64,000 bases of DNA from an uncultured bacterium (GTDB lineage Bacteria; UBP6; UBA1177): positions 22,621 to 86,620 of the forward strand of contig CAMZDX010000001.1 of assembly GCA_947305505.1 (NCBI GenBank), given 5' to 3'. A model generated the notes under the pieces. That model was not told the origin of the DNA. It searched no databases and saw nothing but the letters and a program-made list of their open reading frames with translations. Of this stretch, positions 27,020-63,942 are shown in pieces. The translations under genes were made by a program, and so were the position numbers. Within the stretch, counting starts at the first letter, position 1. Each line of letters begins with the position of its first letter.

Positions 27020-27106
27020 TTTTTCTACCCTTAAAATCAATTAAATAAACAAAAACCCGCGGAAGTTAATGAAAAGAAGATTTTTTGTCAATTTTTTGCG
27101 GCGCCG

Positions 27107-38346: not shown

Positions 38347-39422
38347 TATTTTTTCGACCAGTGATAAGTCATGCCGCCCATGAAGTAACCCGCGCCGAAA
38401 GAGATTGCACAGCCCCTTGTTTTTTCGTCTTTCAGCGGACGGTCTGCGTCTTTGAACCAGGTTTCGAGAACAAACATAACGCTCGGAGAACTGAAATTTC
38501 CGTATTTTTCGAAAATCGACTTCGAACGGCTTATCTGCTCATCATTCAAACCAAGAATTCCTGGTTCCGTAAAACGCATGAGTATAGGCATTCCGCCCTG
38601 ATGAAGCGACCATTCTTCAATATTTTCCGGCGTTACACCCAAAGGTTTTATGATGTGGTCGTGAACGATTTCGGGAACCGTGTCTTTGAGATTGTCTTCG
38701 AGAACGAGTTTGCCTTCGTGCATGGAAAGAGAACCGCCGGAAACAAAATCAGTAATAATTTCATCAACTTCCATTAAAGGAAGATCAAATTTGTCTCTCA
38801 AATTTTCGGGAATCACTAAAATTCCCGCTGCGCCGTCGGCAAAAAGGAGCGTCGTTTTGAGATTTTCCTTAAATTCCGGGTCATCGATATCGTAAGTCGG
38901 ATTTACTATCCACGAACACTGGTCGAAAAGAAAAGTTATCGCCGCCTTGTTGTGTTCCCGACAGTATTTTACCGAAGATTCAAGCGAAAAAAGACCGGCC
39001 GCACATCCCAGATAAGCCATTTCCTGCGGCGGATAGTCAAGTTTCAAAGCACATTTTGAGGCGATTTTGCTTGAAAGGCTCGGCAGAACATCTTTGTCGC
39101 AGCGGATATTGTAGGCAATCGACAGAAAGCCGACATCTTCACGCGAAACACAGCCGCTGTGCAGAAGTTCTTCAACAGCGCGGCTCCCCCACTCCAGCGG
39201 ATGATATTCAGGTGTCGCCAGAGCCCTGCCGGGAAAAGCCTCTTTGGAAAGTATCGTCGGACGGTAAGTTATCCCGACTGCGCCTACAGAACGCCTTGCA
39301 AAACGGTGAGGACGACCGTTGTCAACAGATTTCGGATAAAGAATGTCAATGACTTCCGAAGACGAGAAAAGATGAGGAAGAATTGTAGTGATTTCAGCTA
39401 TATAAACTTTATTTTTCATCAA
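38346..39422 (-). CDS. Type III polyketide synthase-like condensing enzyme (chalcone/stilbene synthase superfamily)
   Basis: Cys in LGCAAGLFSL, His in LHQGGMPIL, Asn in YGNFSSPSVMFVL, plus GAGYFMGG near the C-terminus. The pattern is closer to CHS-like (HxGGxxIL, GNxSS) than to FabH. 358 aa. The stop overlaps the pseudouridine synthase start (TAATG). Confidence 0.65.
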   Translation of the reverse strand: MMKNKVYIAEITTILPHLFSSSEVIDILYPKSVDNGRPHRFARRSVGAVGITYRPTILSKEAFPGRALATPEYHPLEWGSRAVEELLHSGCVSREDVGFLSIAYNIRCDKDVLPSLSSKIASKCALKLDYPPQEMAYLGCAAGLFSLESSVKYCREHNKAAITFLFDQCSWIVNPTYDIDDPEFKENLKTTLLFADGAAGILVIPENLRDKFDLPLMEVDEIITDFVSGGSLSMHEGKLVLEDNLKDTVPEIVHDHIIKPLGVTPENIEEWSLHQGGMPILMRFTEPGILGLNDEQISRSKSIFEKYGNFSSPSVMFVLETWFKDADRPLKDEKTRGCAISFGAGYFMGGMTYHWSKK

Positions 39423-39585
39423 AGCCTTTCAACAATCAAAAAAACGCACAAAAAAACAACGGCGATAATACCCATTTGGCAACTTCAGTCAATTATATGC
39501 TGTTTTTTCATTCCGGTTACGGCATAAACTTTACAATGCAAGACCCTTAAATAAAATAGCGCGTTTTCGTTCCGGAGGTTAAAAA

Positions 39586-41351: not shown

Positions 41352-43484
41352 TCAATCAACAATCTCGGCCTCAACCGAGTCCAGCATCAGGCAGGAATTG
41401 CCGCTTTTCGGAACAATTTTGAAAACGTGGTTCCCTTTCGAAAATCGGTGGTTTATTGAAAACACCCTTCTTTCCTGGAAGGTTGATTTTGATGCAAAAG
41501 TTCCGGCATTTTCGCCGTCGATAAACAGCGTTGCATCGGTTCCGCACTTGTCTGCGACATAGAAAAGGTTGAACTCGTATTCGCCAGCTTCGATTATCGG
41601 GTGTGTAAAATCGTAGTAACTTTTCTCGGTCAGTTTAGCGAAACGCATCGCAAAAACCGTTTCGTTCGAAACAAAAACAGAAAGTTCCTTTATCGGATAG
41701 AATTTTTTATCCTCTTCTTCGCTCATCGAAAAATTTACGCCGTAATCGGGCATTCCCGTTTTCGGAAGGCGTTTGTTTTCAAACTCGAAAATCATTTTGC
41801 CGCGCGTCGCCTCAAAAAGCGGAGTTACCGAAGTTTTGTCCGCGAGTTTCGGGTAATAATCAATGAGATAAGCCCCTTCGAACGGCTTTTTATCCATGAA
41901 ATAAGCCGCCGCATAGAAGTTTTCTTCGCCCAAATCAAGCAGAATCAGATTTCCCCTGTCGTCGTAAGGCGGTTTTTTCATCAGATTAAGGAAAACACTG
42001 CCGTAAAGCGGCGGCACGAAAACGACGCTGTTTCTTATATCCTCGCGTTCTATCGCGTGTTCCACTTCCCTGTCTGTCGACCAGAAAGCATCCGAAAAAT
42101 TTGTGAGGAAAGGCGGCATGATCGTTGTGACCAAAAACAGGAAAATCGCCGCAGGAAGCGCGGTAACAAACGGTCTCACCCACTTGTTTGCAGAATCTCT
42201 CATCGAGAAAAACGCGTATCCGCACGGAATCAAAAGAAGAGAAGCGACCTCTGAAAAATAACGCGGTCCGAAAAGATTGCCTGAAAGGTAGAAAAAGAAG
42301 TAGCCAGCGAAAAATATTAAGAAAAACATAGAGATCTCAAGACTTTTCCTGAACGAATAAAAGAAAGAAGAGATCAGAAAAACGAAAATAAGCGGATGTC
42401 CCACAAGGTTGAAGTTGAGCAGCGTGAGACGCGCAAACGAAACCCAGAAAGCATAGTGCGGAGTAAGCCCTTCTTTAGGCAGAAAGTCGCCTTCGGTGTT
42501 GGGACAGCCTTTTCCGAAGCCCATTCTGTGGCAGAATTTATAAGGTTCGCGGATGAAAAAATAGACATCCTGCGGGAAAAGCATCGGATTTCCCGTGTAG
42601 AAAAAGTTGTAGAACATAAGCAGGGATCCGACAAAAATAAAAGGCAGCGTAAAAATGACCGCGCTTTTGAACTTCATTTTTTTGGAAAACATCAAAAGAA
42701 GTATGCCGCCGTAGACAAAAAACGCGTTCTGCGGGCGGATGAAAAGAGTCCAAGCTCCGGCAAAACCTGCTGCGACAAGCAATCCGGCTCTGTTTTCCGA
42801 GATCATGACGAGGTAAATCGTGAGCAGAGTCAGCATCAGATTGAAGGGATGCGTCATGTATGAAGCGCCCATAAAAAGGTAAAACGAACTGAAAAGTGCG
42901 AAAAACATCGCAAAAAACGAAGTCTTCGCGTCAAACTGCTTATCGGCTATCTTTCCCAGTAAAAACACTGCAATACCGTTGCAAATCGGAGTAAAGAACT
43001 GCGAAATGCCGAGCAGCTCGAAAGGAACGAGAAAAATTGAAAATCCCGGCAGGAAAAGTGAGAAATACCGGTTATTTATATCAACGTTGAAAGTATTCTG
43101 ATAGTATTCGTAAAGCTCGCTCGTCGGAAGGTGAAAATGTCCTGTCTCGATGAAAACGCGCGCGGTCCACAAAAAATGCGAGGCATCAATGACATGCGGA
43201 ATCGAATCGAAAACGAAAACGGCGATCAGCGCCGGAAACAGAAAACCGAGAAAAGGAAAGATAAGGTAGCGTTTTTTCACAAAAAAATCAAATGTTTCAG
43301 CCGACTTATCCTTTGCAAAGCTGTCAACAAGAAAAAACAGGACAACCAAAACAATAAAAATTATGTGAAAACGCGGATAAAACGCAGTAAAAACCGTCCA
43401 GAACTTTCCCCGCGTGCCCCAGAAAAAGAAGAGAAGCAAAAAGATAAGTGCCGGAAAAAAGGCAAGATTTTTTTTATTTTTCAT
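41352..43484 (-). CDS. Polytopic membrane protein (710 aa), GT-C-fold-like (PMT/ArnT/YfhO-like architecture) with C-terminal extracytoplasmic domain
   Basis: ~12 predicted TM helices in the first ~480 aa, then a ~230-aa soluble domain. Its start overlaps the dnaX stop by 4 nt. Family assignment is architectural inference only. Confidence 0.55.
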   Translation of the reverse strand: MKNKKNLAFFPALIFLLLFFFWGTRGKFWTVFTAFYPRFHIIFIVLVVLFFLVDSFAKDKSAETFDFFVKKRYLIFPFLGFLFPALIAVFVFDSIPHVIDASHFLWTARVFIETGHFHLPTSELYEYYQNTFNVDINNRYFSLFLPGFSIFLVPFELLGISQFFTPICNGIAVFLLGKIADKQFDAKTSFFAMFFALFSSFYLFMGASYMTHPFNLMLTLLTIYLVMISENRAGLLVAAGFAGAWTLFIRPQNAFFVYGGILLLMFSKKMKFKSAVIFTLPFIFVGSLLMFYNFFYTGNPMLFPQDVYFFIREPYKFCHRMGFGKGCPNTEGDFLPKEGLTPHYAFWVSFARLTLLNFNLVGHPLIFVFLISSFFYSFRKSLEISMFFLIFFAGYFFFYLSGNLFGPRYFSEVASLLLIPCGYAFFSMRDSANKWVRPFVTALPAAIFLFLVTTIMPPFLTNFSDAFWSTDREVEHAIEREDIRNSVVFVPPLYGSVFLNLMKKPPYDDRGNLILLDLGEENFYAAAYFMDKKPFEGAYLIDYYPKLADKTSVTPLFEATRGKMIFEFENKRLPKTGMPDYGVNFSMSEEEDKKFYPIKELSVFVSNETVFAMRFAKLTEKSYYDFTHPIIEAGEYEFNLFYVADKCGTDATLFIDGENAGTFASKSTFQERRVFSINHRFSKGNHVFKIVPKSGNSCLMLDSVEAEIVD

Positions 43485-45151
43485 TTTGCAAAGACACCTT
43501 TTATCTCGAATCCCTGATCTGTCGCAGCCTTAACGACAGCGCTTTCAATCATATTTTTTTTGCGTTGTTCAATATCTTCCATGCGCCGGAGCTCGTCTTC
43601 GGTAAAAATCGAAGCGTTCGTTCCCTTTTCAAAGTTGACCGAAAATTTCTTTCTGCCGCATGCAAAGCTGTCGAAAAGAGCTTTCAGGCGCTTTGCAAAA
43701 CCGTCGCCGTCGGAATTTAAAACCGTCGTAACAGTTACGACAACAGAGTTATCGTCTTCCTTATACGGCATGCTCTGCAGTCTGCCGTATAAAAAGAGAT
43801 CGCTCTTTTTGAAAGTTTCGGTGAAATCGCGCCAAAGCCCGCCGTTTTCAACTTTTTCGGCTGATCCGGCAGCTTTTTCTTCAGCTTTTTCAGGTCGTTT
43901 TTCAGTATTTGCCGGTATTTCAGCCGTTTTCGGCTCTGTTTGCGGCTGATTTTGTGAAGTTTTTACAGGTTCAGCTGTTTTTTTTTCAGCACTCTGCCCG
44001 TTCTGCGTTGTTACGACTGCAGCAGACGCAATATTTTTTGCGAAAGATCTGAAATCGTTCATAGTCGGGAAGGAACATGCCGTAATCACCGCGACTTCAA
44101 AAAGCATAAGCGAAAAATCGGAACTTTTGATCCCTTCGTATTCACCGTTCCAGAAGCGGAAAAGCCTCGTCCAGTCGGGAGTTGAAGCAAGTTCCGAGCA
44201 CGATTTTATCCACTCGAGTTCTTCAGCCGGAGCTTCGATGAAAGAGCCGTTTCCGAGTTCGCTGAAAAGAAGGATTCCGTGCAGAAGTGAAAGAATGTCG
44301 CGCGCCGCCTTTTCTATCGATTTGCCGCTTTTGTAGATGTCTCTTGCAAAAGAAACTGCCGCCGCAGAATCGTGTTTTGCTATCGATTCAATTATTCCGC
44401 GAAGTTGCTTTTTGTCGGAAGCGCCCAGAATCATTGAAATTTCAGATTCAGTCACCTTTCCGCCGCCGAAAGTAACCAGCTGTTCCAGAATTGTCTGGCT
44501 GTCGCGCATACTCCCCTCGCCTTCACGTGCGATCGCATAGAGGGCATCCATGTCGTATTCGCGCTGTTCGGCATCAAGGATCTTTGCAAGCTGCTTGGCA
44601 ACATCGTCAAGCGAAAGACGCTTGAGATCGTACCTCTGGCAGCGGCTTAAGACAGTCGTCGGAATTTTCTGCGGATCGGTCGTCGCAAGGATGAAAACAC
44701 TGTGAGCCGGCGGTTCTTCAAGCGTTTTGAGGAGCGCGTTGAACGCAGATTTACTCAGCATGTGAACTTCATCTATGATGTAGACTTTGAACTTCGATTT
44801 TACCGGAGAATAGGAAATATTTTCCTTAATGTCGCGGACATCATCGACCGAGTTGTTTGACGCGCCGTCGATTTCTACCACGTCCGGGCTTCTTCCCTCT
44901 GAGATTTCACGACAGCATTCGCACTTGTTGCAGGGTTCGCCGTCAGGCTGAAGATCGGTACAGTTGAGAGCTTTGACCAGAATTCTCGCCAAAGTCGTCT
45001 TTCCCGTTCCGCGGATACCGGTAAAAAGGTAAACCGGCGCCGTACGCTTGTTCAGAATCGCGTATTTCAAAGTCGAAGTGACGTGATCCTGACCGACAAC
45101 TTCGTCAAAACGCTGCGGACGCCATTTTCTTGCAACAACCTGATAAGCCAT
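43481..45151 (-). CDS. dnaX: DNA polymerase III subunit gamma/tau
   Basis: MAYQVVARKWRPQRFDEVVGQ..., Walker A GIRGTGKTT, Zn-module CNKCECC. Start refined to ATG 45149-51 with a GGAGGTG RBS; the track start at 45181 is TTG. Confidence 0.85.
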   Translation of the reverse strand: MAYQVVARKWRPQRFDEVVGQDHVTSTLKYAILNKRTAPVYLFTGIRGTGKTTLARILVKALNCTDLQPDGEPCNKCECCREISEGRSPDVVEIDGASNNSVDDVRDIKENISYSPVKSKFKVYIIDEVHMLSKSAFNALLKTLEEPPAHSVFILATTDPQKIPTTVLSRCQRYDLKRLSLDDVAKQLAKILDAEQREYDMDALYAIAREGEGSMRDSQTILEQLVTFGGGKVTESEISMILGASDKKQLRGIIESIAKHDSAAAVSFARDIYKSGKSIEKAARDILSLLHGILLFSELGNGSFIEAPAEELEWIKSCSELASTPDWTRLFRFWNGEYEGIKSSDFSLMLFEVAVITACSFPTMNDFRSFAKNIASAAVVTTQNGQSAEKKTAEPVKTSQNQPQTEPKTAEIPANTEKRPEKAEEKAAGSAEKVENGGLWRDFTETFKKSDLFLYGRLQSMPYKEDDNSVVVTVTTVLNSDGDGFAKRLKALFDSFACGRKKFSVNFEKGTNASIFTEDELRRMEDIEQRKKNMIESAVVKAATDQGFEIKGVFAK

Positions 45152-45310
45152 TTTCACCTCCAAAAGCGCGGAATTATACAAATAAGCAGCTTATAGTAAA
45201 GGAAAAATCGCTATTTGTCCTCTCAGGAATATAATACTGCGTTTTGGCGGCGCGATCATGACGTTGTAACGATCACGGAGAGCGCAGCAAATAATTTTGC
45301 AGAGACCGCT

Positions 45311-47116
45311 ATGAAGAAAAAATATCCGGCACTGCTTATCTACATTTTATTTTTTGCAGTGCTTTTTCTGCAGTTTCCCTTGAAAAAAGAGATTTCCGGC
45401 AACTGTGATTCGTGGCTCGCACTGACTTATTCCACCCGCACTTTGGAAACATTCAAATCGTTTTGGACAGACGAAACCGTCGGGAAAGCGATGTTTCCGG
45501 CTGAAAATCCGCTTGCTTACGGCGAATCGGCTCCGGGAATGCAGATGATAATCATTCTTTTCAAGGCTTTCGGCCTGCCCGATTACTGGGTAAACTATTT
45601 TTTTCTTCTCGTGATTTTTTCTCTCACAGCGTTCGGAATATTTATTTTTTCCAGCAATTTCACGCAGTTTTTTCCGGCGCAGCTTTTTGCCGGATTCTGT
45701 TTTTCGTGCAGCAACATGATTTTTGCCCACATTGACGATTCAGTCATCATTTTCTTTTTCATTCCGGCTGTCGCATTGCATCTCATATACGCATTTTTTA
45801 GAAGCAAAGACAAAAAATACTTAATAATATCGAGCATTTTAGCAGGAATAGAGATTTATTTCTCATTTTACGTCTTTTTCTACCAGTTTCTTATGATTTT
45901 TGTTTTTTTTGCATGGCTTGCAAGCAAGAACTGCTGGAAAATCCCGGAAAGTGCAAAACTTTTTTCAATCTATATTCTGATTGCCTTCATAATCGCCGCC
46001 CCCAATTTCCTTTATTATCTGCACGCTTTATACGACCTTGATTTTGTTTCGGTTTTTGAAGCTTTTTACACGGCGAAAATGGCAAGTTTCAACTTTGTCG
46101 ATATCTTTCTGGTACTGCCTGACAACCTGATTTATCCGAATATCGGAGAATTTTTCGGATTTCCGATGAACTGGGGTTTTGTCCGGCATTATAATTTCAT
46201 CGGTTTGCTTTCTTTGGCACTTTTTGCATATTCGCTTTTTAAATGGAATCGCGAAAATCGCAGCTTATTCGTTTTTCTTGCCGTTACCGGCATATTTTTC
46301 GCGTGCGGTCCGGTCTTTATGTTAGCAATGAAAGAGCTTTTTTATTCGCCGCTTTATATTTTTTACAAACCGATTCCGGTGCTGAAATTCCTGAGAGTGG
46401 CAGTTAGGGCATACTTCATATTTTTGTTTGCAGTTTCCATTGCCTCCGCTGTTTCATTTGAGCGGATCTGCCGCAAAGTAAAAAAACAGCATCTTGTAAT
46501 CATTGCACTTTTTGCATTTAATTTTGCAGAAAACATTCCCTTCCCTCTCAAAGGTTTTGACGCCTCGATCACTGAAAAAGTGCCTGAAATTTACGAAACC
46601 GTAAAGCGGCAGAACATCACGAGACCTTTGATTTTGGAACTTCCGTCAAGAATGAAAATCGAATTTGAAAACATGGATTCAGAAAAATTCGGCAACCCGA
46701 AAAATTTTGTGCACAAAAACAGCGAAAATCCACGGCTTGATATTTTGAATATCGGAATGTTCGTAGATTCCTGGAATGATATTTTTCAATATAACCGTGA
46801 AATCATCTACACAAACTGGCAGAACCGCCACAAAATCGATTCCGTCAACGGCGTGAACGGCTATTTTCCCACTCCGCGCATGATTCTGCAGTATCACATA
46901 AACAATCTTCCGAATCCGGAATCATTTGAGTTTTTAAGAAAATTCGGAATAAATTTCATAGTTTGGCATGAATTTATGAAAATAAAGGCAGACACGCTTT
47001 CTTTAGAAGACTTGGAAAAATCACCATGTTTAAGCAAAATCGAAACGAATTCGGAAGGAAGCACTCTCTTCAAACTGACAAACTGCGACACTAAGATTTT
47101 TTACGGGAGTTTTTAA
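45311..47116 (+). CDS. Polytopic membrane protein (601 aa), possible GT-C/YfhO-like
   Basis: Start refined to ATG 45311 (MKKKYPALLIYILFFAVLFL...). >10 TM helices plus a C-terminal soluble region. Confidence 0.55.
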   Translation: MKKKYPALLIYILFFAVLFLQFPLKKEISGNCDSWLALTYSTRTLETFKSFWTDETVGKAMFPAENPLAYGESAPGMQMIIILFKAFGLPDYWVNYFFLLVIFSLTAFGIFIFSSNFTQFFPAQLFAGFCFSCSNMIFAHIDDSVIIFFFIPAVALHLIYAFFRSKDKKYLIISSILAGIEIYFSFYVFFYQFLMIFVFFAWLASKNCWKIPESAKLFSIYILIAFIIAAPNFLYYLHALYDLDFVSVFEAFYTAKMASFNFVDIFLVLPDNLIYPNIGEFFGFPMNWGFVRHYNFIGLLSLALFAYSLFKWNRENRSLFVFLAVTGIFFACGPVFMLAMKELFYSPLYIFYKPIPVLKFLRVAVRAYFIFLFAVSIASAVSFERICRKVKKQHLVIIALFAFNFAENIPFPLKGFDASITEKVPEIYETVKRQNITRPLILELPSRMKIEFENMDSEKFGNPKNFVHKNSENPRLDILNIGMFVDSWNDIFQYNREIIYTNWQNRHKIDSVNGVNGYFPTPRMILQYHINNLPNPESFEFLRKFGINFIVWHEFMKIKADTLSLEDLEKSPCLSKIETNSEGSTLFKLTNCDTKIFYGSF

Positions 47117-47118
47117 AT

Positions 47119-48969
47119 ATGCCTGAAACGGTAAAAAAACTTTTTAAATTCAAAAATCCCCAGTCTTATTCATACTTTATTCTGATTTTCTCGGTTTACT
47201 GGTCGATGAAGTTTTTTCTCGGCTTCTACATGTTCGACAAAGTGGGAAGCGAGACTCTGATCTTTGTGCCGCCTTTTTCCCTGCTTTTGAACGTGACCGA
47301 TATCCTTTTCTGTCTTATCGCAGCATATACCATTGATTTTATTGCAAAAAACAACAAATATTTATTTTTCATACTTACTTGGGCGACATTCCCGCCGATT
47401 TATTATTTTGCAATCAAGGGTTACATAATTTATCTCTATTTTCACGGATTCGTTAACTTCGGACTCAACAATTTCCTTGGCTCGAAAGGAAACGAAACTG
47501 TGAATTTCATTCTTTACGCTCTAGATGTTTACGCCGTCATGTTTCTGATTTTTCTCTTGATTGTCACGGTTTTATATCTGATTTTTGCAAAAAAATTGGG
47601 AAGTTTCGTTGCTGAAAAAAGAGCAGATCTTCCGATTTTCTTTCTGATAGCAGCCCTTCTTCTGCTTCCGTTCAGAATCGCTTTTTCGGAAAAATGCGAA
47701 AGAATCGACGCAAGCCCGCTTTTTGAACTTCCTTTAAGCTATCTCACCATGCCTAACTATATGCCGCGTAATTATTCCAAAGATTTCAGACCTCCGCATG
47801 AACTTATTTTCGGCAGAGAAAAAAGCAGTGTCAAAGTTGAAAAAGGAGAACTCAAAAAGAAAAGAAACATTCTGATTTTACTAATAGAATCGACATCTTA
47901 CAGTAAAAAAGAAAGACTTGGTTTCTTCAACTACTTTCAGAAAAACTCAGTCGAAGCAACAAATTTCAGAGCATGTTTCCCCGGAACCACAAGGTCTCTT
48001 ATTTCAACAATGTGCGGAACTTACAGCGGAACCGGGTTTACAGCTCTGACGCGCTATCAGCCCGATTTCACCTGCACTTCCCTGCAGAAAAAGTTAGGTG
48101 AAAACGGATACCGGACAGCTCTTTTTTCAGCAGTAAATCTTTCCTACGACGATTTTGATCAGGCAAAAATGCTTAAAGATTTTAACATCATAGAAGAACC
48201 GTCGACTTTGACGAAACGCTATACGCCGAAAAAAATCCACGGAACGGGAAACGCGATTGAAGAAGAGATTCCGATTGAAGAAATCATAAAATTCATGAAA
48301 AAAGACGAAAATCCCTTTTTCGTTTTTTACTATGTTTACTGGACTCACAGCCCTTACGAACATCCCTTCAAAGATACGGGCAACCTGCCGCTTGAAGAGC
48401 GTTACGACGAATCGCTGAAGTATGTTGACGAGTCGGTTCAGAAACTGTTTGAAAAGATGAAAGAAAACAATCTTTTCGATGAAACTGTGATAATCGCCAC
48501 TTCCGACCACGGTCAGGCTTTCGGAGAGCATCCCGGAAACTACACTCACAGCAACTACATTTACGAAGAATCGGTAAAAGTTCCGTTTATAATGAGAAGC
48601 CCCGATTTTTCAGAACAAAAACAGACAGTTGATGTAGATGCGGCACATTTTGACATTCCGGCGACAATACTCGAGTTTGCAGGAATAAAGCAGCCTGAAA
48701 ACTGGGACGGACAGTCTCTGATTTCTGGAAATTACAAGCAGAAACCGAAGCTGATGTTTTCACGCGGGATCGTTTACAGCGACGGAATCCTCGACGGCAA
48801 CTACAAATACATTTACTATCCTGACGGCAAAAAGGAAGAACTTTACGATTTAAGCACAGATCCGCTCGAAAAGAACAACATTTCAAAAGAAAACAAAGAA
48901 AAAACTGATAAATATCAGCAGCTTTTTAGAGAATGGATCCCTTATCAGCAGGATAGAATCACAAAGTAG
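47119..48969 (+). CDS. LtaS/phosphoglycerol-transferase-like sulfatase-family enzyme (N-terminal 5-TM domain + alkaline-phosphatase-like domain)
   Basis: Five N-terminal TM helices, then a sulfatase-type domain (ATSDHGQAFGEH; YWTHSPYEHPF). Confidence 0.75.
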   Translation: MPETVKKLFKFKNPQSYSYFILIFSVYWSMKFFLGFYMFDKVGSETLIFVPPFSLLLNVTDILFCLIAAYTIDFIAKNNKYLFFILTWATFPPIYYFAIKGYIIYLYFHGFVNFGLNNFLGSKGNETVNFILYALDVYAVMFLIFLLIVTVLYLIFAKKLGSFVAEKRADLPIFFLIAALLLLPFRIAFSEKCERIDASPLFELPLSYLTMPNYMPRNYSKDFRPPHELIFGREKSSVKVEKGELKKKRNILILLIESTSYSKKERLGFFNYFQKNSVEATNFRACFPGTTRSLISTMCGTYSGTGFTALTRYQPDFTCTSLQKKLGENGYRTALFSAVNLSYDDFDQAKMLKDFNIIEEPSTLTKRYTPKKIHGTGNAIEEEIPIEEIIKFMKKDENPFFVFYYVYWTHSPYEHPFKDTGNLPLEERYDESLKYVDESVQKLFEKMKENNLFDETVIIATSDHGQAFGEHPGNYTHSNYIYEESVKVPFIMRSPDFSEQKQTVDVDAAHFDIPATILEFAGIKQPENWDGQSLISGNYKQKPKLMFSRGIVYSDGILDGNYKYIYYPDGKKEELYDLSTDPLEKNNISKENKEKTDKYQQLFREWIPYQQDRITK

Positions 48970-51900
48970 CTACTTGATTTCTTTAGTTTTTAGTCCCGAA
49001 ATTTCTACAAGTTTTCTGCCTGAATCAGTGCAGAGCACGATCGATTTTCTGTCTGCAATGCAAAAACCTTTTGAAGGGATATTTTGCTGAAAAAATTCGA
49101 TTTTTCCGATTGAAACGGGAAGAACGAGTTTGTTTGCCATAATCAGAGCGGTTTGAAGCATTGAATCGATCAAAGTCGGCGTAATTGTTGAAGATTTATT
49201 GAAATCTGAGAATGAAAGTTCTCTTTTTTCTCCGCGGATCCATGAGGCTAGACAAAAATCTTTTTTAAGAGACAAAACTTCTTTTATGTGACGGAAAAAT
49301 TTCCCGTGAAAAACAGGTTTCGGAATAAATTTTTCAATATCAAGCGGCTTTTTAGAAATTTTCGGAAGTACAACCGAACAGCTCTGGCATTTTAAATTAT
49401 CAAAATAAAATTCGCATGTTACAACATTTTGAGAAAAACCGTCAAGGCTCGTCCGCAGCACTGCAACAATCAAATTATCCGAATTTTTAGAGACTGCGGC
49501 AAAAGAACGGAGCTCTATTGGCGAGGCATCTGAAAAAATAACCGGCGAAGAAATTTTAATATTTTTTATCTCTCTCAAATTTCTGCTCCCGGCAATCAGC
49601 GCTGCATTTTTGGAAAGCAGCTCCAGGATAAAAACGATCGGAAGAACAACCGCTCCGTTTACAACATGGTCGAGAAGATAAACATCCTGATTTATTGACA
49701 TTTTTGTCTGAGTTACAATTTCAGTTTTCGGAATAAAACGGATGATCCTCGTATTTTTCGAGCTGCTCAGACTGCTGTATTCGGGATATAAATTCGCCTC
49801 AAGATGCTGGGCAAGCCTTCCCGTAACGACCGAAATCTTTGAATCGGAAAAAATGATATCTTTGTAAGCCTCAACGCCGTCGTTTGTTGAAAGCGGAACG
49901 ACACCGACACTTTTGAGATAGTCGATGACATTGTCTTTTTTGCCCATGCCGGTTTCGTTCCACACGGTATAACCGACTGATTTTGCCGGAATATTCATTT
50001 TATTTAAAAGCAGACACAGATAGTCCAGCCAGCTGTTTGCAAAAGTGTAGTCGGCCTGCATCCTCATTCCGGTTTTTGCAAGAACGGACGAAATCAAATG
50101 AACGAATTTCAGGTTTTCGGTGTCACAGAGAGATAAAATATCAAGCAGACTGCCAACTTTTACAGCCAGACACCTGTCAAAACTGCTTTTTTCCATATCC
50201 TGAAAAAGTGCATAGTTGCTGATTCCAGCTCCATGCAGGATTCCGCTGATTTTTCCGTGATTTTTTATGATTTCTTTAATAGTTTTCTTGGTTTTTGCAC
50301 TGTCAGACAAATCGCATGAATAGTAAAAAACATCCTGCGCATACTTTTTCAAAGCCGTCATATTTGCAAGTGTTTTCGAACCGACTCTGAAAACTTCATC
50401 TTTTTCTGTTGAACCGACAAGAACAAAACGGCATTGCAGAATTCTGCTCAATGCAAGAGTATGCTCGAAAGTTATCCCTTTTGCTCCGCCGGTAACGAGA
50501 ACCAAGTCGGCCTTATCACATAACACATTATATTTATTTGATTTTTCGCTGTATGATTCGACTGCCGCCCAGGTTTTTCTATTTAAATTTTCATCGTAAA
50601 CAATGTGCATATTTCCGTTTATGAAAGCTTCAGACTCCTTTTTTATCAAAAGTCGAGTTATCGGTTCATCAATATTTTCATGGATCGAAAGCCACAGAAA
50701 TTCACCGTGCGTGTACTCCAGGCGCAAGGTTTTGAGAAGTGCCGCAGCAGGATTCAAAGAATCTGCAATATCTGAAAAACGCGAAACAAAAACAAGTCTG
50801 AATTTTGAGTGTATCGGATCTTTATCTTTTAAAAACAGCTTTAATTCAGCAAAAACATTTTCAGAGAATTTTGCAAAATTCTTTTTTAAACCATTAAAAT
50901 CATTAAATTTATTTATTTTGTCGGTATAAAAAACGAAAGTGTCGGTTTTTGATGCCGGATCACCTTTTCCATGCTTTGAAAAAGGAGCATCGCAAAGCCT
51001 GATTTCAAAAGTTTTTATCCATTCAGGAATAACACCTGGAGTTGTAAGCGATGCTTTTTTATCATTTCTGAGATCTGTTTCCGAGTAACTTTCAGCAGCG
51101 TCAGCCTGCATCGTATCAATGATTTCCCGGATCGTGGATTCCGAAAAAAGTGTCGGACTTGCAATAATTTCACCCGGTTTAATCTTTCTTCCCAAAGCAA
51201 GCATAAACTCGGCACCTTTTAAAGAATCAAAATTCAAATCATATTTGAGATTCATATCAATGTTTATATTTTCCTTAGCGAAACCGGTCTTGTCTGCAAT
51301 CCAGTTGATTGCAAAATCGTAGATATTTTCTTCTTTTTCTGATGTTTTTTCGTCTGAATTTTTCTTCTCCGCAGGCTCTTTTTCCAAAGGATTCGCGATA
51401 AACGAATGTCTCTGCAACTTATTGAAATCAAAAGGCAATTTGCTGTTTTTATTTAACAGATTTCCGTTCAGCCAAAGAAGAGCAACTATTGAAAGAATGG
51501 ATTTCTGCGGAGTTTTTTCAGCACCATCGGTTGCCTCCGACAAAAAATCAGTTTTCAGAATATCTGGAAGAAGTGATTTCAAAACATCTTTAGGACCGCA
51601 TTCGATGAAAAGATTTATCCCGGAATCATTCATATTTTTTATCGTTTCGCAGAAATTTACAGGCTTTAGAATCTGCTCTGACAAATATTCTGCAAAATCA
51701 GCACAGTCAGCTTTTTTGGCTGTAACAGTTGAAAAAAGAGGCAGTTTTTTGCTATGTTTAAAACTGATTTTTTTGAGAAATTTTTTGAAATCGCCAGCCG
51801 CCTTTTTCATAAAAACAGAGTGGAAAGCATTGGAAACATTGAGTTTTTTATAACCAATAGAAAGGACATCAAGGAAGCTTGCAAGTTTTTCTATTTCAGT

Positions 51901-54186
51901 TTCCGAACCCGAAAGAACGACCTGCTTTTCAGAATTTATGTTGGCAAAATTGAGTTTCGCTTTTGAACTTTTCAAAATGTTTTCTGCCGTCTCGAAGTCG
52001 CAGAAAAGCGCTATCATGCCGGTGTTTTCAGTGCTTCCCGACATGAGCAGACCTCTTTTTGCCGCGATTTTTACGGCAACGGTATCAGGAATCACGCCTG
52101 TTGCGCACAAAGCAGTGATTTCTCCCAGGCTGTGTCCTGTAAAATAAATGTCTGAAAGTGAATATTTTTTCAAAACATCAAGAAAAACAAGCGATGTTGC
52201 AACAATTGCGGGCTGAGCATATTTTGTCAGGGTAACTGCCGCATCTTTCGATTTTAAATCCGAATCCGAATATTTCCAGCGGTTTTCAAGAACGAAACCG
52301 GCAATTCCTTCTGGAATTATTTCTTTAACGGCTGAATCGAGCTTGTTGAAATACTCTTTTTCTTCTGGAAAACTTGTCAGAATTTCAGCGAGCATTCCGA
52401 AATACTGGCTTCCCTGCCCCGGAAACATGAATGCCGCGGCTGAAGAGTTCTTTTCTGCCGAAAATCCGCATGACAAAGAAGCATCAAAAAACGAATTTTT
52501 CTTTTTGATTTCAGAGATGAGCGTTTCGCACTTATCCTGGAATGACGAGGGATTATCCGCTACGACCGCAGCTTTATAACCGTTTGATTTCACTGATTTA
52601 TTGTATTTTTCAGAGAAATCTGAAATTTCAGAAGAACTCATATTTTTTGCAGCTTCTGCAATTTTTGAGATCTCATTTTCGAGAGCCTTTTTCGTCGGAG
52701 CCGAAACCATGAACATAAACGAGCTTGTCTCCGGTTCTACTTTTGCGGCAGGATAAATTTTCCTCTCTTTTTCAGGAATAAATTCTTCCATTGTTATGTG
52801 CGCATTCGATCCGCCGAAGCCGAAAGCGCTGACTGAAGCCCTGCGCTTGTGCTCATGCGCCGTCCATATTCTGCCTTCCATCGAAGGCTGCAGGAATTCC
52901 GGCGGTCTGCCGAAAGCCGAATTCGGAATAAAACATCCTGTCGTCGGCGGAATAAAATGATTTTCAAGAGCAAGTAGAGCCTTTATCGCACTGAATGCAC
53001 CGGCAGCTGCCTTCAAATGACCGATATTCGCCTTCAGGCTTCCGATATAGGAAACATCTTTTTTCTTTTTGCTCATAACCGAAAGCAGGGCTTCGATCTC
53101 TGCCGCATCGCCGCGCACTGTGCCGGTGCCGTGACCTTCGAAATAATCGACTGAATCAATTGTGTATCCTGCTTTTCTGTAAGTTTTTTGAAGAGCGACC
53201 GCCTGACCTTCAGCTTTCGGAGCCGTTATCGCTTCACCGTTTCCGTCGGAAGAAAAGGCAAAACCTTTGATTACCGCTTTGGGAACAAAACCGTATTCAA
53301 GCGCGGTTTTCAAATCGGCCAGAAGCAGAAGTGCGCAGCCCTCGCCCGGCAGCATTCCGTTTGCACGGATATCATAAGGGAGAATATTCTCTTTCGCAAA
53401 AGCACCAACCTTGGAAAATCCGACATATTCAAAAGGATCGAGACTTATATCTACTCCGCCGCAGAGTGCAAAATCAAGATCGCCCGATTCAATGGCAAAG
53501 CAGGCGTTTATTACCGATAGCAGAGAAGATGAACACGCGCCGTCAACAGTATATGCGCCGCCGCGGAAATCAAAGAAGTTGGCAATCCTTCCGGCAATAA
53601 TGTTCGACATTCCGCCTGTCAGCGAATCTTCGTTGATTTCAGGCAGCATTCCGACCATATCTTTTTCAAACTGGGCTGCAATTTCTGCTTTTGCATCGGA
53701 ATCAAGTTCAAAGTGGTTCAAAGCCCGATTCAACCTGTCTTTTATCGTGCTGAAACGCGATTTTAGAGTGAAACTTCTGGCAAATTCGCCCGTAATGCTG
53801 TTGCCGATAACCACACCTTTTCTGCTCGGATCAATTTGTTTTAAGAAACCGAATTTATTCAACAATTTATCGGCAGTATCAAGAGCCAGCCAGTGAGTTA
53901 TGTCGTAGTGTTCCGCACTCAGCGGAGAAATTTTGTATTTCAGCGGATCGAACTTCCAATCGGTAATCAAGGCCATGAGGCGGGTCGCGCTTTTATCCGG
54001 AACATTTCCGTTTTTTGAATAGTAGAGTTCTTCGGGCAGCCTGACATCGGGCATGATCCTGAACTCTTTTTTTCTTTCCATTACGGTTTTCCATACATCC
54101 GCCGGAGTTTTTATACCTGGCCCTATGCATGAAAAATCAAGAACGGCTACTTCACGTTTATTGATGACGCCCATGAAATCTCCCAA
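48970..54186 (-). CDS. Type I polyketide synthase, PfaA-like single module (KS-AT-ACP-KR-DH), 1738 aa
   Basis: KS domain: TVDGACSSSLL, EGHGTGT, NIGHLKAAAG. AT domain: FTGHSLGEITAL, AFHS. ACP domain: LNFDSLKGAEF. KR domain: VLVTGGAKGITFEH. DH domain: LLDHVVNGAVVLP. Confidence 0.85.
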   Translation of the reverse strand: MGDFMGVINKREVAVLDFSCIGPGIKTPADVWKTVMERKKEFRIMPDVRLPEELYYSKNGNVPDKSATRLMALITDWKFDPLKYKISPLSAEHYDITHWLALDTADKLLNKFGFLKQIDPSRKGVVIGNSITGEFARSFTLKSRFSTIKDRLNRALNHFELDSDAKAEIAAQFEKDMVGMLPEINEDSLTGGMSNIIAGRIANFFDFRGGAYTVDGACSSSLLSVINACFAIESGDLDFALCGGVDISLDPFEYVGFSKVGAFAKENILPYDIRANGMLPGEGCALLLLADLKTALEYGFVPKAVIKGFAFSSDGNGEAITAPKAEGQAVALQKTYRKAGYTIDSVDYFEGHGTGTVRGDAAEIEALLSVMSKKKKDVSYIGSLKANIGHLKAAAGAFSAIKALLALENHFIPPTTGCFIPNSAFGRPPEFLQPSMEGRIWTAHEHKRRASVSAFGFGGSNAHITMEEFIPEKERKIYPAAKVEPETSSFMFMVSAPTKKALENEISKIAEAAKNMSSSEISDFSEKYNKSVKSNGYKAAVVADNPSSFQDKCETLISEIKKKNSFFDASLSCGFSAEKNSSAAAFMFPGQGSQYFGMLAEILTSFPEEKEYFNKLDSAVKEIIPEGIAGFVLENRWKYSDSDLKSKDAAVTLTKYAQPAIVATSLVFLDVLKKYSLSDIYFTGHSLGEITALCATGVIPDTVAVKIAAKRGLLMSGSTENTGMIALFCDFETAENILKSSKAKLNFANINSEKQVVLSGSETEIEKLASFLDVLSIGYKKLNVSNAFHSVFMKKAAGDFKKFLKKISFKHSKKLPLFSTVTAKKADCADFAEYLSEQILKPVNFCETIKNMNDSGINLFIECGPKDVLKSLLPDILKTDFLSEATDGAEKTPQKSILSIVALLWLNGNLLNKNSKLPFDFNKLQRHSFIANPLEKEPAEKKNSDEKTSEKEENIYDFAINWIADKTGFAKENINIDMNLKYDLNFDSLKGAEFMLALGRKIKPGEIIASPTLFSESTIREIIDTMQADAAESYSETDLRNDKKASLTTPGVIPEWIKTFEIRLCDAPFSKHGKGDPASKTDTFVFYTDKINKFNDFNGLKKNFAKFSENVFAELKLFLKDKDPIHSKFRLVFVSRFSDIADSLNPAAALLKTLRLEYTHGEFLWLSIHENIDEPITRLLIKKESEAFINGNMHIVYDENLNRKTWAAVESYSEKSNKYNVLCDKADLVLVTGGAKGITFEHTLALSRILQCRFVLVGSTEKDEVFRVGSKTLANMTALKKYAQDVFYYSCDLSDSAKTKKTIKEIIKNHGKISGILHGAGISNYALFQDMEKSSFDRCLAVKVGSLLDILSLCDTENLKFVHLISSVLAKTGMRMQADYTFANSWLDYLCLLLNKMNIPAKSVGYTVWNETGMGKKDNVIDYLKSVGVVPLSTNDGVEAYKDIIFSDSKISVVTGRLAQHLEANLYPEYSSLSSSKNTRIIRFIPKTEIVTQTKMSINQDVYLLDHVVNGAVVLPIVFILELLSKNAALIAGSRNLREIKNIKISSPVIFSDASPIELRSFAAVSKNSDNLIVAVLRTSLDGFSQNVVTCEFYFDNLKCQSCSVVLPKISKKPLDIEKFIPKPVFHGKFFRHIKEVLSLKKDFCLASWIRGEKRELSFSDFNKSSTITPTLIDSMLQTALIMANKLVLPVSIGKIEFFQQNIPSKGFCIADRKSIVLCTDSGRKLVEISGLKTKEIK

Positions 54187-54215
54187 AAAAGCCGCGCTAT
54201 TATACTCAAATTTTC

Positions 54216-55442
54216 TTAAAATGCGAGCTGGATTTCATCTTTCTGCCGAAACTCGTTTTCTATCACTTTTATTGCGTTGATCTTCTGTTCAACACTTGCG
54301 TGCTGGTAAATTTCATGCACCATAACGGATCTGTGTCCCACAAGTTCCATCACGACATTCATCGGGATCCCGTTCGCCGCGCACAGCGAGACGAAACTAT
54401 GTCGGAAACTGTGAAAACCGTAAATCGTGCTTTTTCTGAAACACCTTTCGTTTTCGACCTTGGTTTCAATACCTGCCTTTTGAAAAAAATTCTGCACCAT
54501 TGTTGCAATATTCCCTTTTGCTTTCAGATATCCTTCAGCAATTTTAGGAATAACATAGTTTGTCACATTATTTTTCTGCTCAGATTTCAACATTTTCAAC
54601 TCATCGCACAGACCGCCCAGCAGCGGTATTTCAAGGTTCCTTTTCAGGTGCTTCGTTTTATTCGGCAATCTTACAATAACTCTATTTTCAAAATCGACCT
54701 CGCTCCACTTCAAAGTAGCAGCATCACCCAGTCTGAGTCCGGTATAAAAACCGATCATGCACAAAGTTCTGATATCTCCTCGTGCATTCATAAAAATCTG
54801 TTTCAACTGTGCCTTTGAAAACGGACGCTTGGAAACATGCCCCTCGCGCTTCTTGTCGACCTCCGACCAGACGTTTTTGCGTAAGCCGGCTTCTTCCGCC
54901 AAAGCTGAAAATATCGACCTGAATTTTGTAATTCTTTCATTGTATGTGCGCTCGGCGATCCCCTTTTCCCACTCTGAACAGAGAAATTTTTCGGCAATTC
55001 CCTTGTCTATTTCGCTCAAATACCTGACATCCGGAAAATTTTTGTTCACAAATGCGACGAATTTATTCCACATACTGCGGTAATCTTCGTAGCCTCTTTC
55101 TGAAATCGTCCGTTTGCGCGGCTTCTTTTTAAAAAGCTCGAAAGTATCTTCCATTGCAACCGTTTTCACTTTTATACTGTTCAGTTCTTCGATGGCACTG
55201 CGCAAGGCCGCTTCTTTTTCCTCCGGCTCAAGAATCTCCACTTTTTTTATCACCTGTTTCAGATAAAAATACCAGTCCAGATCCAACTTCAGCTGCATAC
55301 ACCTTTCTTCAGCTTTTTTTGTTGCCTCACGAAGCGAGTTTGTCCTTGTAGATTCAACGATGCGCCTGCCGTTGATCATTACCTGAAAATAGTAGTTTCT
55401 GCTTCCTCTTTTCTTAAAAACACTAACCATTTCACGTTTCAC
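54216..55442 (-). CDS. Tyrosine-type site-specific recombinase/integrase (phage integrase family)
   Basis: Catalytic-domain residues R...HSFRHSF...LVGHRSVMVHEIYQH (R-H-R-Y tetrad region). N-terminal SAM-like/arm-binding part. 408 aa. Confidence 0.8.
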   Translation of the reverse strand: MKREMVSVFKKRGSRNYYFQVMINGRRIVESTRTNSLREATKKAEERCMQLKLDLDWYFYLKQVIKKVEILEPEEKEAALRSAIEELNSIKVKTVAMEDTFELFKKKPRKRTISERGYEDYRSMWNKFVAFVNKNFPDVRYLSEIDKGIAEKFLCSEWEKGIAERTYNERITKFRSIFSALAEEAGLRKNVWSEVDKKREGHVSKRPFSKAQLKQIFMNARGDIRTLCMIGFYTGLRLGDAATLKWSEVDFENRVIVRLPNKTKHLKRNLEIPLLGGLCDELKMLKSEQKNNVTNYVIPKIAEGYLKAKGNIATMVQNFFQKAGIETKVENERCFRKSTIYGFHSFRHSFVSLCAANGIPMNVVMELVGHRSVMVHEIYQHASVEQKINAIKVIENEFRQKDEIQLAF

Positions 55443-55544
55443 CTTTTCAAAATAAATTTATAAAATTACACCGTTTTTTACACCATTAACAGAAATAAAC
55501 CAGTCAGCCATCGCAAAAATCAAAAAAAAATCATGTATAATTAA

Positions 55545-56600
55545 CATGTTAACATACACGATGATTCTTTATATTACGGTTGTCCAAGCGGTAGTTACTA
55601 TGAAGGCGGTTCCTGCAAAACAACGAAATGCGGCGACGGAATTGTAAACAGTGAACACTGCGAAAGTGTCGGTTCTGAATATACCTGCATATTCACAGTC
55701 GGCAGAAATGAAGTTTGTGATGACGGCGGTAAAAACGGACAATATGCGGGTGTCGCTACGAGATCGAACTGCAAGAGCGACTGCAGCGGAAAAATCAAAG
55801 GCGGTTCGGAATACTTCTGCGGTGACGGAAAAGTTCAGTATAAATCTGGCGATACATGTTACGGTTCGGCATGCAAACAGGTAACTGAAGGCAACTATCC
55901 GGGTGCCACAATTTCTGCCTTCACGCAATCGGAACAGTGTGACCCGAAGAGCGGCGCCAATGACAGAGCAACTCTCTGCAAATCTAAAGGGTACGGAGAT
56001 CACAGTTACTACGACAACACCAACTCTGTTCCGAGCTGCGGAAACGACTGCAAAATAACTATAAGCCAGTATGAAGGCTGCGCTTACTGCGGAGACGGAA
56101 AGGTTCAGAAAGCAAGCGGCACTCTGACTTATGTCTCAGCTGATTACTCCAATGTTTCTGGAGCAAGTGAATACTGCGATCCGGGAAAGGATTACAACAA
56201 TGATACAGGAACCAAAGAACTCTGCAACGCGGCACTGAGTTTAACCAGAACAAGTTACTATACTCCAAGTACGCGACCAACATGTTCAGGCGGTTGTGAT
56301 AAAAGCAGCATAAAGAATGCGACACAGGGAACTAACTGCCAGTGGTGCGGTGACGGAACTGTTAACGGGTCAGAAAAATGTGATACAGGGATAAGTACTC
56401 TGTATTCCTGTTATGAAGCAACTTCATGGACAACTGGTTCTGGTAATAGTGAGGAATCGCACTCTGGTTATAATGTCTACAAAATGAATTGTTCCACCGG
56501 CTGTTCGTGGGGTAGTAAAACCTCATTGTCAACTCAATCTAGTTCTTATACTTATTCCGGTTACACAAATAAAGGAACTTGCTCCAGCTTCGGTTTATAA
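55545..56600 (+). pseudogene. 5'-truncated gene fragment of a secreted Cys-rich repeat protein (CGDGxV / 'Myxococcus cysteine-rich repeat'-like)
   Basis: Open frame of ~350 codons. It has no ATG/GTG/TTG until ~40 codons from its end and does not appear in the ORF track. Encodes repeated C-x-x-CGDGKV-x-x-x-E-x-CD motifs. The frame opens right after a TAA at 55542-44, ~100 nt from the integrase start. Confidence 0.45.
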
Positions 56601-56619
56601 ATAACCCTACAACATATAA

Positions 56620-58823: not shown

Positions 58824-58850
58824 ACATCTCGCATTTCCCAAAAAATTGAA

Positions 58851-58868
58851 TATAATAGCGCGGTTTTG
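58851..58868 (+). promoter_or_regulatory. Conserved promoter-like motif TATAATAGCGCGGTTTTG (copy 1), ~15 nt upstream of the ATG of the AlbA_2/HTH gene
   Basis: Identical 18-mer recurs at 60413-60430 upstream of the next gene. Contains a consensus TATAAT. Confidence 0.4.
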
Positions 58869-60380: not shown

Positions 60381-60412
60381 CATTTTTCCTTTAGCAATTC
60401 CAAAAAACCGAG

Positions 60413-60430
60413 TATAATAGCGCGGTTTTG
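60413..60430 (+). promoter_or_regulatory. Conserved promoter-like motif TATAATAGCGCGGTTTTG (copy 2), ~13 nt upstream of ATG 60444
   Basis: Identical to 58851-58868. Confidence 0.4.
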
Positions 60431-60443
60431 TTTCGGAGATTCA

Positions 60444-63842: not shown

Positions 63843-63866
63843 ACCACACCTCCAAAAAGATAATAC

Positions 63867-63942
63867 TGAAAACTTTTTCACATTTCAAGAAAAGTTTTCA
63901 CTGCCACTGAAAACTTTTTCGGATTTTGGTAAAAGTTTTCAG
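63867..63942. promoter_or_regulatory. Two tandem AT-rich palindromes (TGAAAACTTTTTC-N~10-GAAAAGTTTTCA, x2) upstream of the minus-strand ATPase gene; candidate operator
   Basis: Motif/inverse-motif pattern A-A'-A-A' seen at ~63867, 63888, 63908 and 63930. Confidence 0.4.

Follow-up and report, generated by a model that had tools for sequence, protein, structure and literature searches.

The 64,000-nt stretch analysed here (the window), which lies on contig CAMZDX010000001.1 of an uncultured bacterium, carries a type I polyketide synthase (PKS) gene that belongs to an undescribed, lineage-restricted module of four envelope-lipid genes tied to giant lipoproteins. The other three members encode an LtaS-like membrane transferase, a divergent paralogue of prolipoprotein diacylglyceryl transferase (Lgt) and an FAD-dependent oxidoreductase. 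Relative to other genomes, the module is split in the window by an inversion whose breakpoints coincide with copies of a repeated element near a tyrosine recombinase gene. The chances appear about even that the PKS is an iterative, polyene-type enzyme that provides envelope lipoproteins with an unusual lipid anchor and whose gene lies in a recombinase-associated invertible region. The original prediction had described a stand-alone PfaA-like PKS in an envelope-lipid or glycoconjugate locus at 41352-54186. As an observation it was sound, but it missed the Lgt paralogue, the FAD enzyme and the integrase-associated inversion.

A conserved module of four genes

The members of the module in the window are as follows.

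47119-48969 (+): LtaS/EptA-like membrane transferase of 616 aa, assigned by family matches, alignment and conservation
48970-54174 (-): type I PKS of 1734 aa, assigned by Pfam, NCBIfam, motifs in the translation and orthologues
56620-57486 (+): divergent Lgt paralogue (prolipoprotein diacylglyceryl transferase family), assigned by PF01790 and an alignment with 5azb
57483-58823 (+): FAD-dependent oxidoreductase of the amine-oxidase/phytoene-desaturase superfamily, assigned by family matches

The four genes are kept together across approximately 20 related rumen and gut loci (given L-numbers below), which represent about ten distinct arrangements. In the near clade the order is invariant: a giant surface-protein gene or cassette is followed by the Lgt-like gene, the FAD enzyme gene, optionally a gene of the AlbA_2/Schlafen type with a winged helix-turn-helix (wHTH) domain, and the PKS gene, with the LtaS-like gene convergent. 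The succession of Lgt-like gene, FAD enzyme gene, optional cassette and PKS gene with a convergent sulfatase-fold (LtaS-like) gene was found in L001-L006, L008-L011 and L016-L023. The PKS and LtaS-like genes are separated by 0 nt between their stop codons in the window and in every near-clade locus. The LtaS-like enzyme noted earlier as flanking the PKS is a conserved partner. In a distant clade (L007 and L012), the PKS is only 45% identical and the order is giant gene, Lgt-like gene, sulfatase-fold gene and FAD enzyme gene, with the PKS gene convergent. The PKS is not stand-alone, as had been proposed: its partners include the Lgt paralogue and the FAD oxidoreductase, which are encoded at 56620-58823, outside the locus first drawn and on the strand opposite to the PKS, as well as the giant lipoproteins.

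Within the near clade, identity is highest for the LtaS-like protein (88-94%, and 63-66% to the far clade), followed by the PKS (75-91%), the Lgt-like protein (60-85%) and the FAD enzyme (approximately 30% between types). The FAD enzyme is the hypervariable member, with one type in the window and L002 and another in L001, L003, L004, L008, L009 and L011. The ratios of nonsynonymous to synonymous substitution (dN/dS) of the PKS gene (0.10-0.14 against orthologues 75-91% identical) and of the LtaS-like gene (0.06-0.12) are low, indicating that both are maintained by purifying selection. Several relatives also possess a gene of approximately 140 codons, a sulfotransferase gene and a second Lgt paralogue (the latter two in L001, L002, L004-6 and L011), none of which the window contains.

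Close homologues of the PKS (73-91% identity) and two others at 44-45% come exclusively from rumen and gut metagenomes and metagenome-assembled genomes. The next-best homologues have approximately 38% identity across about half of the query, and some longer PKSs align at 29-35% over almost its whole length. Literature searches on this gene combination and on PKS in rumen Treponema found no description of the cluster. The attribution to a Fibrobacter-type organism found no support in the nearest records, which are labelled simply 'bacterium' or 'Spirochaetales bacterium'.

Architecture of the polyketide synthase

The list of open reading frames (ORFs) gives a 1738-aa ORF at 48970-54186(-), and the ORFs of the locus first drawn all lie where the original prediction placed them. 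The true start of the PKS is likely the ATG at 54174, because a ribosome-binding site (GGGAG) is found ahead of it and the orthologues are also 1734 aa long. Pfam searches of the whole protein and of its linker segments alone give the order ketosynthase (KS), acyltransferase (AT), acyl carrier protein (ACP), ketoreductase (KR) and dehydratase (DH), bearing out the order given in the original prediction. Both halves of the KS (N- and C-terminal), the AT, the KR and PKS_DH_N were matched. The AT-KR linker, scanned alone, contains a single PP-binding domain (23.3 bits; gathering score 20.8), and the last 267 residues, likewise alone, match PKS_DH_N and PS-DH. Motifs are legible in the translation for the KS (DGACSSS, HGTGT, NIGH), the AT (GHSLGE and AFHS, of malonyl type), the ACP (FDSL), the KR (TGGAKGIT, YTFAN) and the DH (HVVNGAVVLP), and the PKS is intact. 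Pfam identified no enoylreductase (ER), thioesterase (TE) or phosphopantetheinyl transferase (PPTase) domain in the protein, of which the double hot-dog DH is the C-terminal end. Genes for an ER, a TE or a PPTase are also lacking among the ORFs of the window.

Resemblance to PfaA, the polyunsaturated fatty acid (PUFA) synthase subunit, extends only to the KS-AT half, and the PKS is not a member of the PfaA family. The KS-AT half is colinear with positions 25-882 of the PfaA model TIGR02813, aligning from the N-terminus, with a malonyl-specific AT and with a KR after the carrier region; to this extent the earlier description as PfaA-like was apt. However, the score of 532.5 bits is about half of the family cutoff of 1010.1, the PKS has 1734 aa against 2582 model positions, the DH is fused at the C-terminus, and one PP-binding match occupies the place of the tandem ACP array between AT and KR of PfaA. 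No pfaB, pfaC or pfaD-like gene (KS with chain length factor, FabA-type DH, ER) was found among the ORFs of the window, as had been noted for the vicinity of the PKS, or in the approximately 20 related loci.

The order KS-AT-ACP-KR-DH without ER is that of the enediyne PKSs (PKSE; CalE8, SgcE, DynE8), and RerA of Rhodococcus is similar. CalE8 (KS, AT, ACP, KR, DH, PPTase) yields conjugated polyenes (PMC3107222), and RerA (KS-AT-ACP-ACP-KR-DH) yields polyenes up to C22 nonaenes (PMC11563203). By these precedents, the expected product would be a conjugated polyenoyl chain made iteratively on the enzyme's own ACP. Whereas PKSEs have a C-terminal PPTase, PF01648 is absent from the PKS of the window (it is present in the homologues P0030 and P0037), and in place of a hot-dog thioesterase and enediyne accessory genes the neighbours encode the Lgt-like protein, the FAD enzyme, the sulfatase-fold enzyme, the integrase and the AlbA_2 protein. 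The PKS is thus outside both PfaA and PKSE. RerA differs in having two ACPs and an adjacent PPTase-Y-TE protein (RerB); neither a second ACP nor a RerB-type protein is found here. The ACP motif of CalE8 is HMSSI, in contrast to the canonical FDSL of the PKS. The hosts of PKSE and RerA are actinomycetes, whereas the PKS of this anaerobic rumen bacterium has membrane lipid enzymes as partners. A sequence search of the PDB with the PKS returned matches to generic modular PKS, fatty acid synthase and PUFA KS structures, and cannot separate PfaA from PKSE.

A second candidate polyketide gene is found approximately 10 kb from the type I PKS: a 358-aa ORF at 38346-39422(-) resembles type III PKS or KAS III (Chal_sti_synt_C, 7.7e-11; ACP_syn_III_C; FAE1). 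In the relative L013, this gene is located next to aspK.

The membrane enzymes and the giant lipoproteins

The 616-aa partner of the PKS has hydrophobic segments at approximately 15-190, as read from its sequence, followed by a sulfatase-fold domain (PF00884) at 250-523. The Thr of its PGTTRS motif aligns with the nucleophile in GKTAD of Listeria LtaS (4uoo), the metal-ligand strand LLIES is found, and the formylglycine motif of S1 sulfatases (C/S-x-P-x-R, here sought as CxPxR) is absent from the sequence. Pfam-level membership, polytopic topology and the retained Thr nucleophile are shared with LtaS and EptA, and 'LtaS-like' seems a fair description. In contrast, scores against the equivalog models for LtaS (35 bits; cutoff 970), EptA (21; cutoff 660) and phosphoglycerol transferase I (15; cutoff 572) are far below their cutoffs.

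The Lgt-like protein scores 79.6 bits against PF01790 (gathering score 24.9), is polytopic and retains the Arg/Tyr core of the family. In an alignment with E. coli Lgt (5azb), it has counterparts of R143, Y235, R239 and R246, residues that are important in the E. coli enzyme. The residue pattern fits a paralogue with altered specificity. The family is small and lineage-restricted (21 clusters), with up to three paralogues per locus in the relatives. One metagenomic member, P0259 (468 aa), has an Lgt-like domain (57-272) fused to an Lcl_C domain (342-468). Like the LtaS-like protein, the Lgt paralogue is far below its equivalog cutoff, and both are linked to a PKS, a linkage that is not known for Lgt or LtaS.

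The giant proteins range from 2400 to more than 4300 aa, contain 6-9% Cys in CGDG...CD repeats and have Lcl_C and DUF4215 matches. A giant gene is always upstream of the Lgt-like gene, and the two are adjacent in both clades. The complete Lcl_C proteins of L007, L012 and the window (28331-30943) possess N-terminal signal peptides with a classical lipobox.

The lipobox lipoproteins of the window are this 870-aa Lcl_C protein (28331-30943(+)) and a 662-aa Gly-rich protein (34543-36531(+)), the gene for which carries 9-nt repeats of GGC type at 35516-36395. Between the two genes are a MoxR-type AAA gene (31043-32020) and a Metallophos gene.

A proposed function for the module

In the scheme proposed here, the PKS would iteratively condense malonyl units on its single ACP, and KR and DH activity without ER would give a polyunsaturated or polyenoyl chain (or a beta-hydroxy/enoyl chain). 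The same domain set without ER makes polyenes in CalE8 and RerA, and the PKS is therefore proposed to build a polyunsaturated chain. The FAD enzyme may then reduce or desaturate this chain in a manner that differs between strains, after which the chain would enter a glycerophospholipid-type donor.

Lgt and LtaS both consume phosphatidylglycerol, the former moving its diacylglyceryl part and the latter its glycerophosphate part. As members of these families, the two membrane enzymes of the module would cut such a donor on opposite sides of the phosphate: the Lgt paralogue may attach the lipid moiety to a lipoprotein cysteine, and the LtaS-like enzyme may move the phospho-headgroup. The lipid would most plausibly be the anchor of the neighbouring giant lipoproteins.

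Probable inversion of half of the module

The features found at and between the breakpoints are as follows.

54188-54230 (-): site A, an inverted-repeat arm and promoter-like element (TCGCAT-N16-TATAAT-A-GCGCGG), from a repeat search
54216-55442 (-): tyrosine recombinase (integrase), from PF00589 (2e-19) and orthologues
55545-56600 (+): silent cassette for the C-terminus of a giant surface protein rich in Cys (CGDG...CD repeats), read as an open frame
58825-58867 (+): site B, the second repeat arm, a promoter-like element downstream of the FAD enzyme gene (conserved), from the repeat search
58884-60380 (+): AlbA_2/Schlafen-HATPase_c_4-wHTH protein, from family matches and relatives
60403-60432 (+): site C, a third copy of the element, oriented as B and upstream of a gene for a 160-aa protein, from the repeat search

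By blastn against L002, L016 and L021, the window from 54250 to 58817 is inverted relative to 47112-54182. The inverted block contains the integrase gene, the silent cassette, the Lgt-like gene and the FAD enzyme gene, the other half contains the sulfatase-fold and PKS genes, and this arrangement was seen only in the window. Both breakpoints map to an inverted repeat (54188-54230 versus 58825-58867; 43 nt, 81%) longer than any other in the window; its core, CCGCGCTATTATAYTC, is present in three copies where 0.02 are expected. Site A is 17 nt ahead of the ribosome-binding site of the PKS gene and its arm includes the stop codon of the integrase gene.

In the relatives the element occurs once, directly 3' of the FAD enzyme gene. 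It is followed directly by the PKS gene in L002, L009/10 and L021, and by an AlbA_2 gene and then the PKS gene in L003, L004-6 and L008 (remnants of AlbA_2 in L008). An inversion between sites A and B would restore the order in which the PKS gene follows the FAD enzyme gene, and one between A and C the order in which it follows the AlbA_2 gene. The split between the PKS and sulfatase-fold genes and the block from the integrase to the FAD enzyme (or to AlbA_2) could thus be undone, and the operon restored, by one inversion.

The integrase has intact catalytic motifs (R, HxxR, H...Y) that are read as GLRLGD, HSFRHS and GH...Y in its translation, and its orthologues (71-77% identity) adjoin silent cassettes in the relatives. 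As in invertons and shufflons, a recombinase gene with intact residues is adjacent to inverted repeats that bound a segment of differing orientation. The separate ancestry of the two halves of the module, detailed below, also counts in favour of the inversion. That the arrangement arose through inversion at or beside sites A, B and C is highly probable; that the adjacent tyrosine recombinase carried it out is somewhat favoured; that the segment is still switching in the population is possible and rather doubtful.

Tyrosine-recombinase inversion systems of gut bacteria include invertible promoters, intragenic invertons and shufflons (PMC10028968, PMC11892184). The present system resembles them in that its recombinase gene has inverted repeats and genes for surface structures as neighbours, in the silent cassettes for the C-terminus of a surface protein and in the inversions between strains. 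It differs in that the inverted segment is 4.6-6.2 kb long and contains biosynthetic genes rather than a promoter alone, that in the relatives 14-18 kb including the whole PKS module lie between repeats, and that switching is here putative.

The silent cassette consists of a 352-codon open frame in which the first ATG, GTG or TTG is at 56484, only 38 codons from the end, and its product would end in CSSFGL, as does the giant protein of L004. In L002 and L004, silent cassettes adjoin orthologous integrases, and long inverted repeats link them to the 3' part of the giant gene that is expressed. In L002 these (1606-1959 versus 16303-16615) have stretches of 78 nt (100%) and 126 nt (93%), and in L004 (5149-5478 versus 23747-24076) they extend for 330 nt (96%). 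The repeats enclose the entire lipid module of 14-18 kb, and L002 and L004 look like two opposite states of a shufflon. A further inverted repeat beside the L002 integrase (74 nt, 93%) also encloses the cluster. No partner repeat of the cassette is found inside the window; if the shufflon is intact here, the expressed giant gene would be beyond position 64000.

A more elaborate proposal joins all of these elements into a lipidation system rewired by inversion. The Lgt paralogue would put a polyenyl anchor, made by the PKS, the FAD enzyme and the LtaS-like enzyme, on the giant Cys-rich lipoproteins, and inversions by the tyrosine recombinase would exchange the giant C-terminus and simultaneously connect or disconnect the lipid genes, so that antigen and anchor co-vary. 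In this complete form the proposal is unlikely to be correct.

Three further observations concern this region. Inverted copies of the start of a methylmalonyl-CoA mutase gene, each comprising the promoter, the ribosome-binding site and the first codons, flank the block from the integrase to the sulfatase-fold gene (L016 5794-7525 and 19502-19834, equivalent to L002 73-146 versus 12018-12294), and one copy has a deletion of approximately 105 nt in L002 that is not present in L018. Where the element directly precedes the PKS gene, a conserved 5'-leader hairpin, GAGACGCC...GACGTCTC, is found (L002 4785-4840; L009 approximately 9920-9985) that is absent from the window. No tRNA integration site or Rfam family was found in the window.

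Alternative explanations

The best-supported alternative, which falls a little short of an even chance, is that the split is a fixed rearrangement, or an assembly chimera of co-occurring strains, in which sites A, B and C represent one class of promoter, the integrase serves the giant cassettes only and there is no switch of the PKS. The two halves of the module have different nearest relatives and thus different histories: the PKS and LtaS-like genes are closest to L008 (91% for the PKS), whereas the integrase, Lgt-like and FAD enzyme genes are closest to L002, L016 and L021 (73-80% to L002 and 28-62% to L008 for the Lgt-like and FAD enzyme genes). The silent cassette adjoins the integrase gene. 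The spacing TYGCAT-N16-TAWAAT-N-GCGCG recurs in the 74-nt inverted repeat beside the L002 integrase, which belongs to the mutase duplication. However, the exact core shared by the sites is 13-22 nt, too short to mislead assemblers with k of at least 55. The three copies, one opposing two, are located exactly at the points from which a single inversion would bring back one or the other operon order of the relatives, and one arm holds the stop codon of the integrase gene. In L002 and L016, too, the 3' end of this gene points towards an arm of an inverted repeat.

Several observations weigh against an invertible PKS locus that supplies a lipoprotein anchor. The element is built like a promoter, with a -10 box of sigma70 type followed by a GC-rich discriminator, and in all cases a ribosome-binding site and an ATG lie 20-30 nt downstream of it. 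Four copies of the motif TAnAATAGCGCG are present in the window (39552-39563, 54193-54204, 58851-58862 and 60413-60424), the copy at 39552 precedes the unrelated aspK operon, and the motif may be a promoter class of this organism. Because of this anatomy and the copy before aspK, the inverted repeat may reflect only a promoter class shared by operon boundaries, and not the targets of the recombinase. The silent cassette suggests a different invertible unit with its partner beyond the window. Both orientations were not seen in one population, either in a metagenome scan or at the contig ends of L018. Apart from one unrelated KS, the scan with the PKS yielded only a 2.6-kb copy of L008. L018 was considered as proof of both orientations and rejected, because its two ends carry the 5' region of the methylmalonyl-CoA mutase gene as a long inverted duplication, which an undeleted repeat explains equally well.

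On the chemical side, every step is read from family membership and gene linkage. The Lgt paralogue scores 59 bits against the equivalog model TIGR00544 (cutoff 118.9) and has the substitutions H103Y, N146D, E151D and E243D relative to 5azb; it may therefore catalyse a different chemistry. No PPTase, thioesterase or acyltransferase gene for ACP priming or chain release was found in the window or in any related locus.

Two other alternatives concern the product of the PKS. The original prediction had envisaged a stand-alone PfaA-like enzyme making a long-chain lipid (an olefin, diol or glycolipid aglycone), with membrane proteins of the GT-C glycosyltransferase fold and the LtaS-like enzyme building a glycoconjugate from the locus at 41352-54186. 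Its remaining members are as follows.

41352-43484 (-): ORF for a 710-aa protein, from the ORF list
43481-45181 (-): dnaX, overlapping the 710-aa ORF by 4 nt
45311-47116 (+): GT-C-fold membrane protein (633-aa ORF at 45215-47116, with a probable ATG at 45311), from AlphaFold2 and Foldseek

The 633-aa protein has no Pfam, NCBIfam or PDB sequence match. A library-wide HMMER search found 366 relatives, 56 of which were used for an AlphaFold2 model (pLDDT 95.4, pTM 0.94), and Foldseek matched the model to STT3, DPY19, AftA, PglB and ArnT with probability 1.0 and E of 5e-7 to 2e-3, which implies that the protein is, by its predicted structure, of GT-C fold. The claim of GT-C-like membrane proteins thus held for this one, but the 710-aa protein has only sub-threshold matches (PMT_2, 21.2 bits, cutoff 26.1; LA_3751-family NF047440, 39 bits, cutoff 200) and no PDB sequence match. 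Its single-sequence AlphaFold2 model was unusable (pLDDT 42), and its hhalign comparison with the 633-aa family was negative (probability 0.1).

This alternative gains from the colinearity of the KS-AT half with PfaA, from the GT-C gene ending 2 nt ahead of the LtaS-like gene, and from the same neighbours in L008. On the other hand, L008, the closest relative, is the only locus to share the 633-aa gene, dnaX and the 710-aa gene with the window. Since none of the three flanks the module in the other loci, where the Lgt-like and FAD enzyme genes are always present, they represent local synteny only, and the locus as drawn joins unrelated transcription units. Even in L008, a 160-aa gene intervenes between the GT-C and sulfatase-fold genes. 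The 710-aa gene is co-transcribed with dnaX and its product is at most a candidate GT-C protein, and the PKS does not reach the PfaA cutoff. A glycoconjugate of this kind is improbable.

An equally low probability is given to the reading that the product of the PKS is no envelope lipid but a diffusible secondary metabolite (a toxin or pigment of enediyne-like or polyene type): the architecture of the PKS is that of a PKSE minus the PPTase, many distant homologues bear the JGI label 'enediyne polyketide synthase' (some with a C-terminal PPTase or 4HBT thioesterase), and free polyenes are released by CalE8 and RerA (PMC3107222, PMC11563203), but a PPTase domain, hot-dog thioesterase, enediyne cassette and exporter are absent from the window and the approximately 20 related loci, the conserved partners are all integral-membrane enzymes of lipoprotein and teichoic-acid lipid families, and the PDB sequence matches, being to generic PKSs, do not favour an enediyne PKS.

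Other features of the window

One further feature adjoins site C.

60444-60926 (+): 160-aa polytopic membrane protein, from relatives

Its counterparts are beside the sulfatase-fold gene in L008 (90%) and near the PKS gene in L007 (42%). The AlbA_2/Schlafen-wHTH gene contains a 12-nt tandem repeat (AACTATACCAAA, approximately nine copies; window 60080-60199, also L004 9688-9807), the copy composition of which varies between genomes. Two AAA_14/DUF4143 proteins, at 61117-62466(+) and 62661-63881(-), match the PADLOC phage-defence candidate PDC-S01 (E of 1e-110 to 1e-114). Together with the AlbA_2/Schlafen gene, these two give the right flank the appearance of a small defence island.

Near the left end, two paralogous ORFs of approximately 685 aa (2301-4373 and 6356-8404(-)) have no family match, share stretches of DNA with 85-93% identity and flank a B12-binding radical SAM gene (4395-5744). 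A 564-aa ORF (20205-20918 for its 102-nt tandem repeats) and an adjacent 1059-aa ORF (23861-27040(-)) also lack family matches, and the stretch around the latter has an extreme AT skew (-0.49).

Significance

Bacterial lipoprotein anchors are thought to derive from ordinary phospholipids through a single Lgt. The conserved linkage of Lgt paralogues and giant lipoproteins with an LtaS-like enzyme and an iterative PKS would suggest that abundant, uncultured rumen bacteria have a specialised lipid anchor that varies between strains, or a polyene lipid of the envelope. Should the lipid be an ordinary one and the inversion fixed, what remains is a rearranged gene cluster specific to one lineage. 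The PKS, from an anaerobe and small for a type I enzyme (1734 aa), is directly amenable to heterologous expression. Biosynthetic genes in recombinase-bounded invertible DNA would, if confirmed, add lipid biosynthesis to the promoters and protein tips on which phase variation acts.

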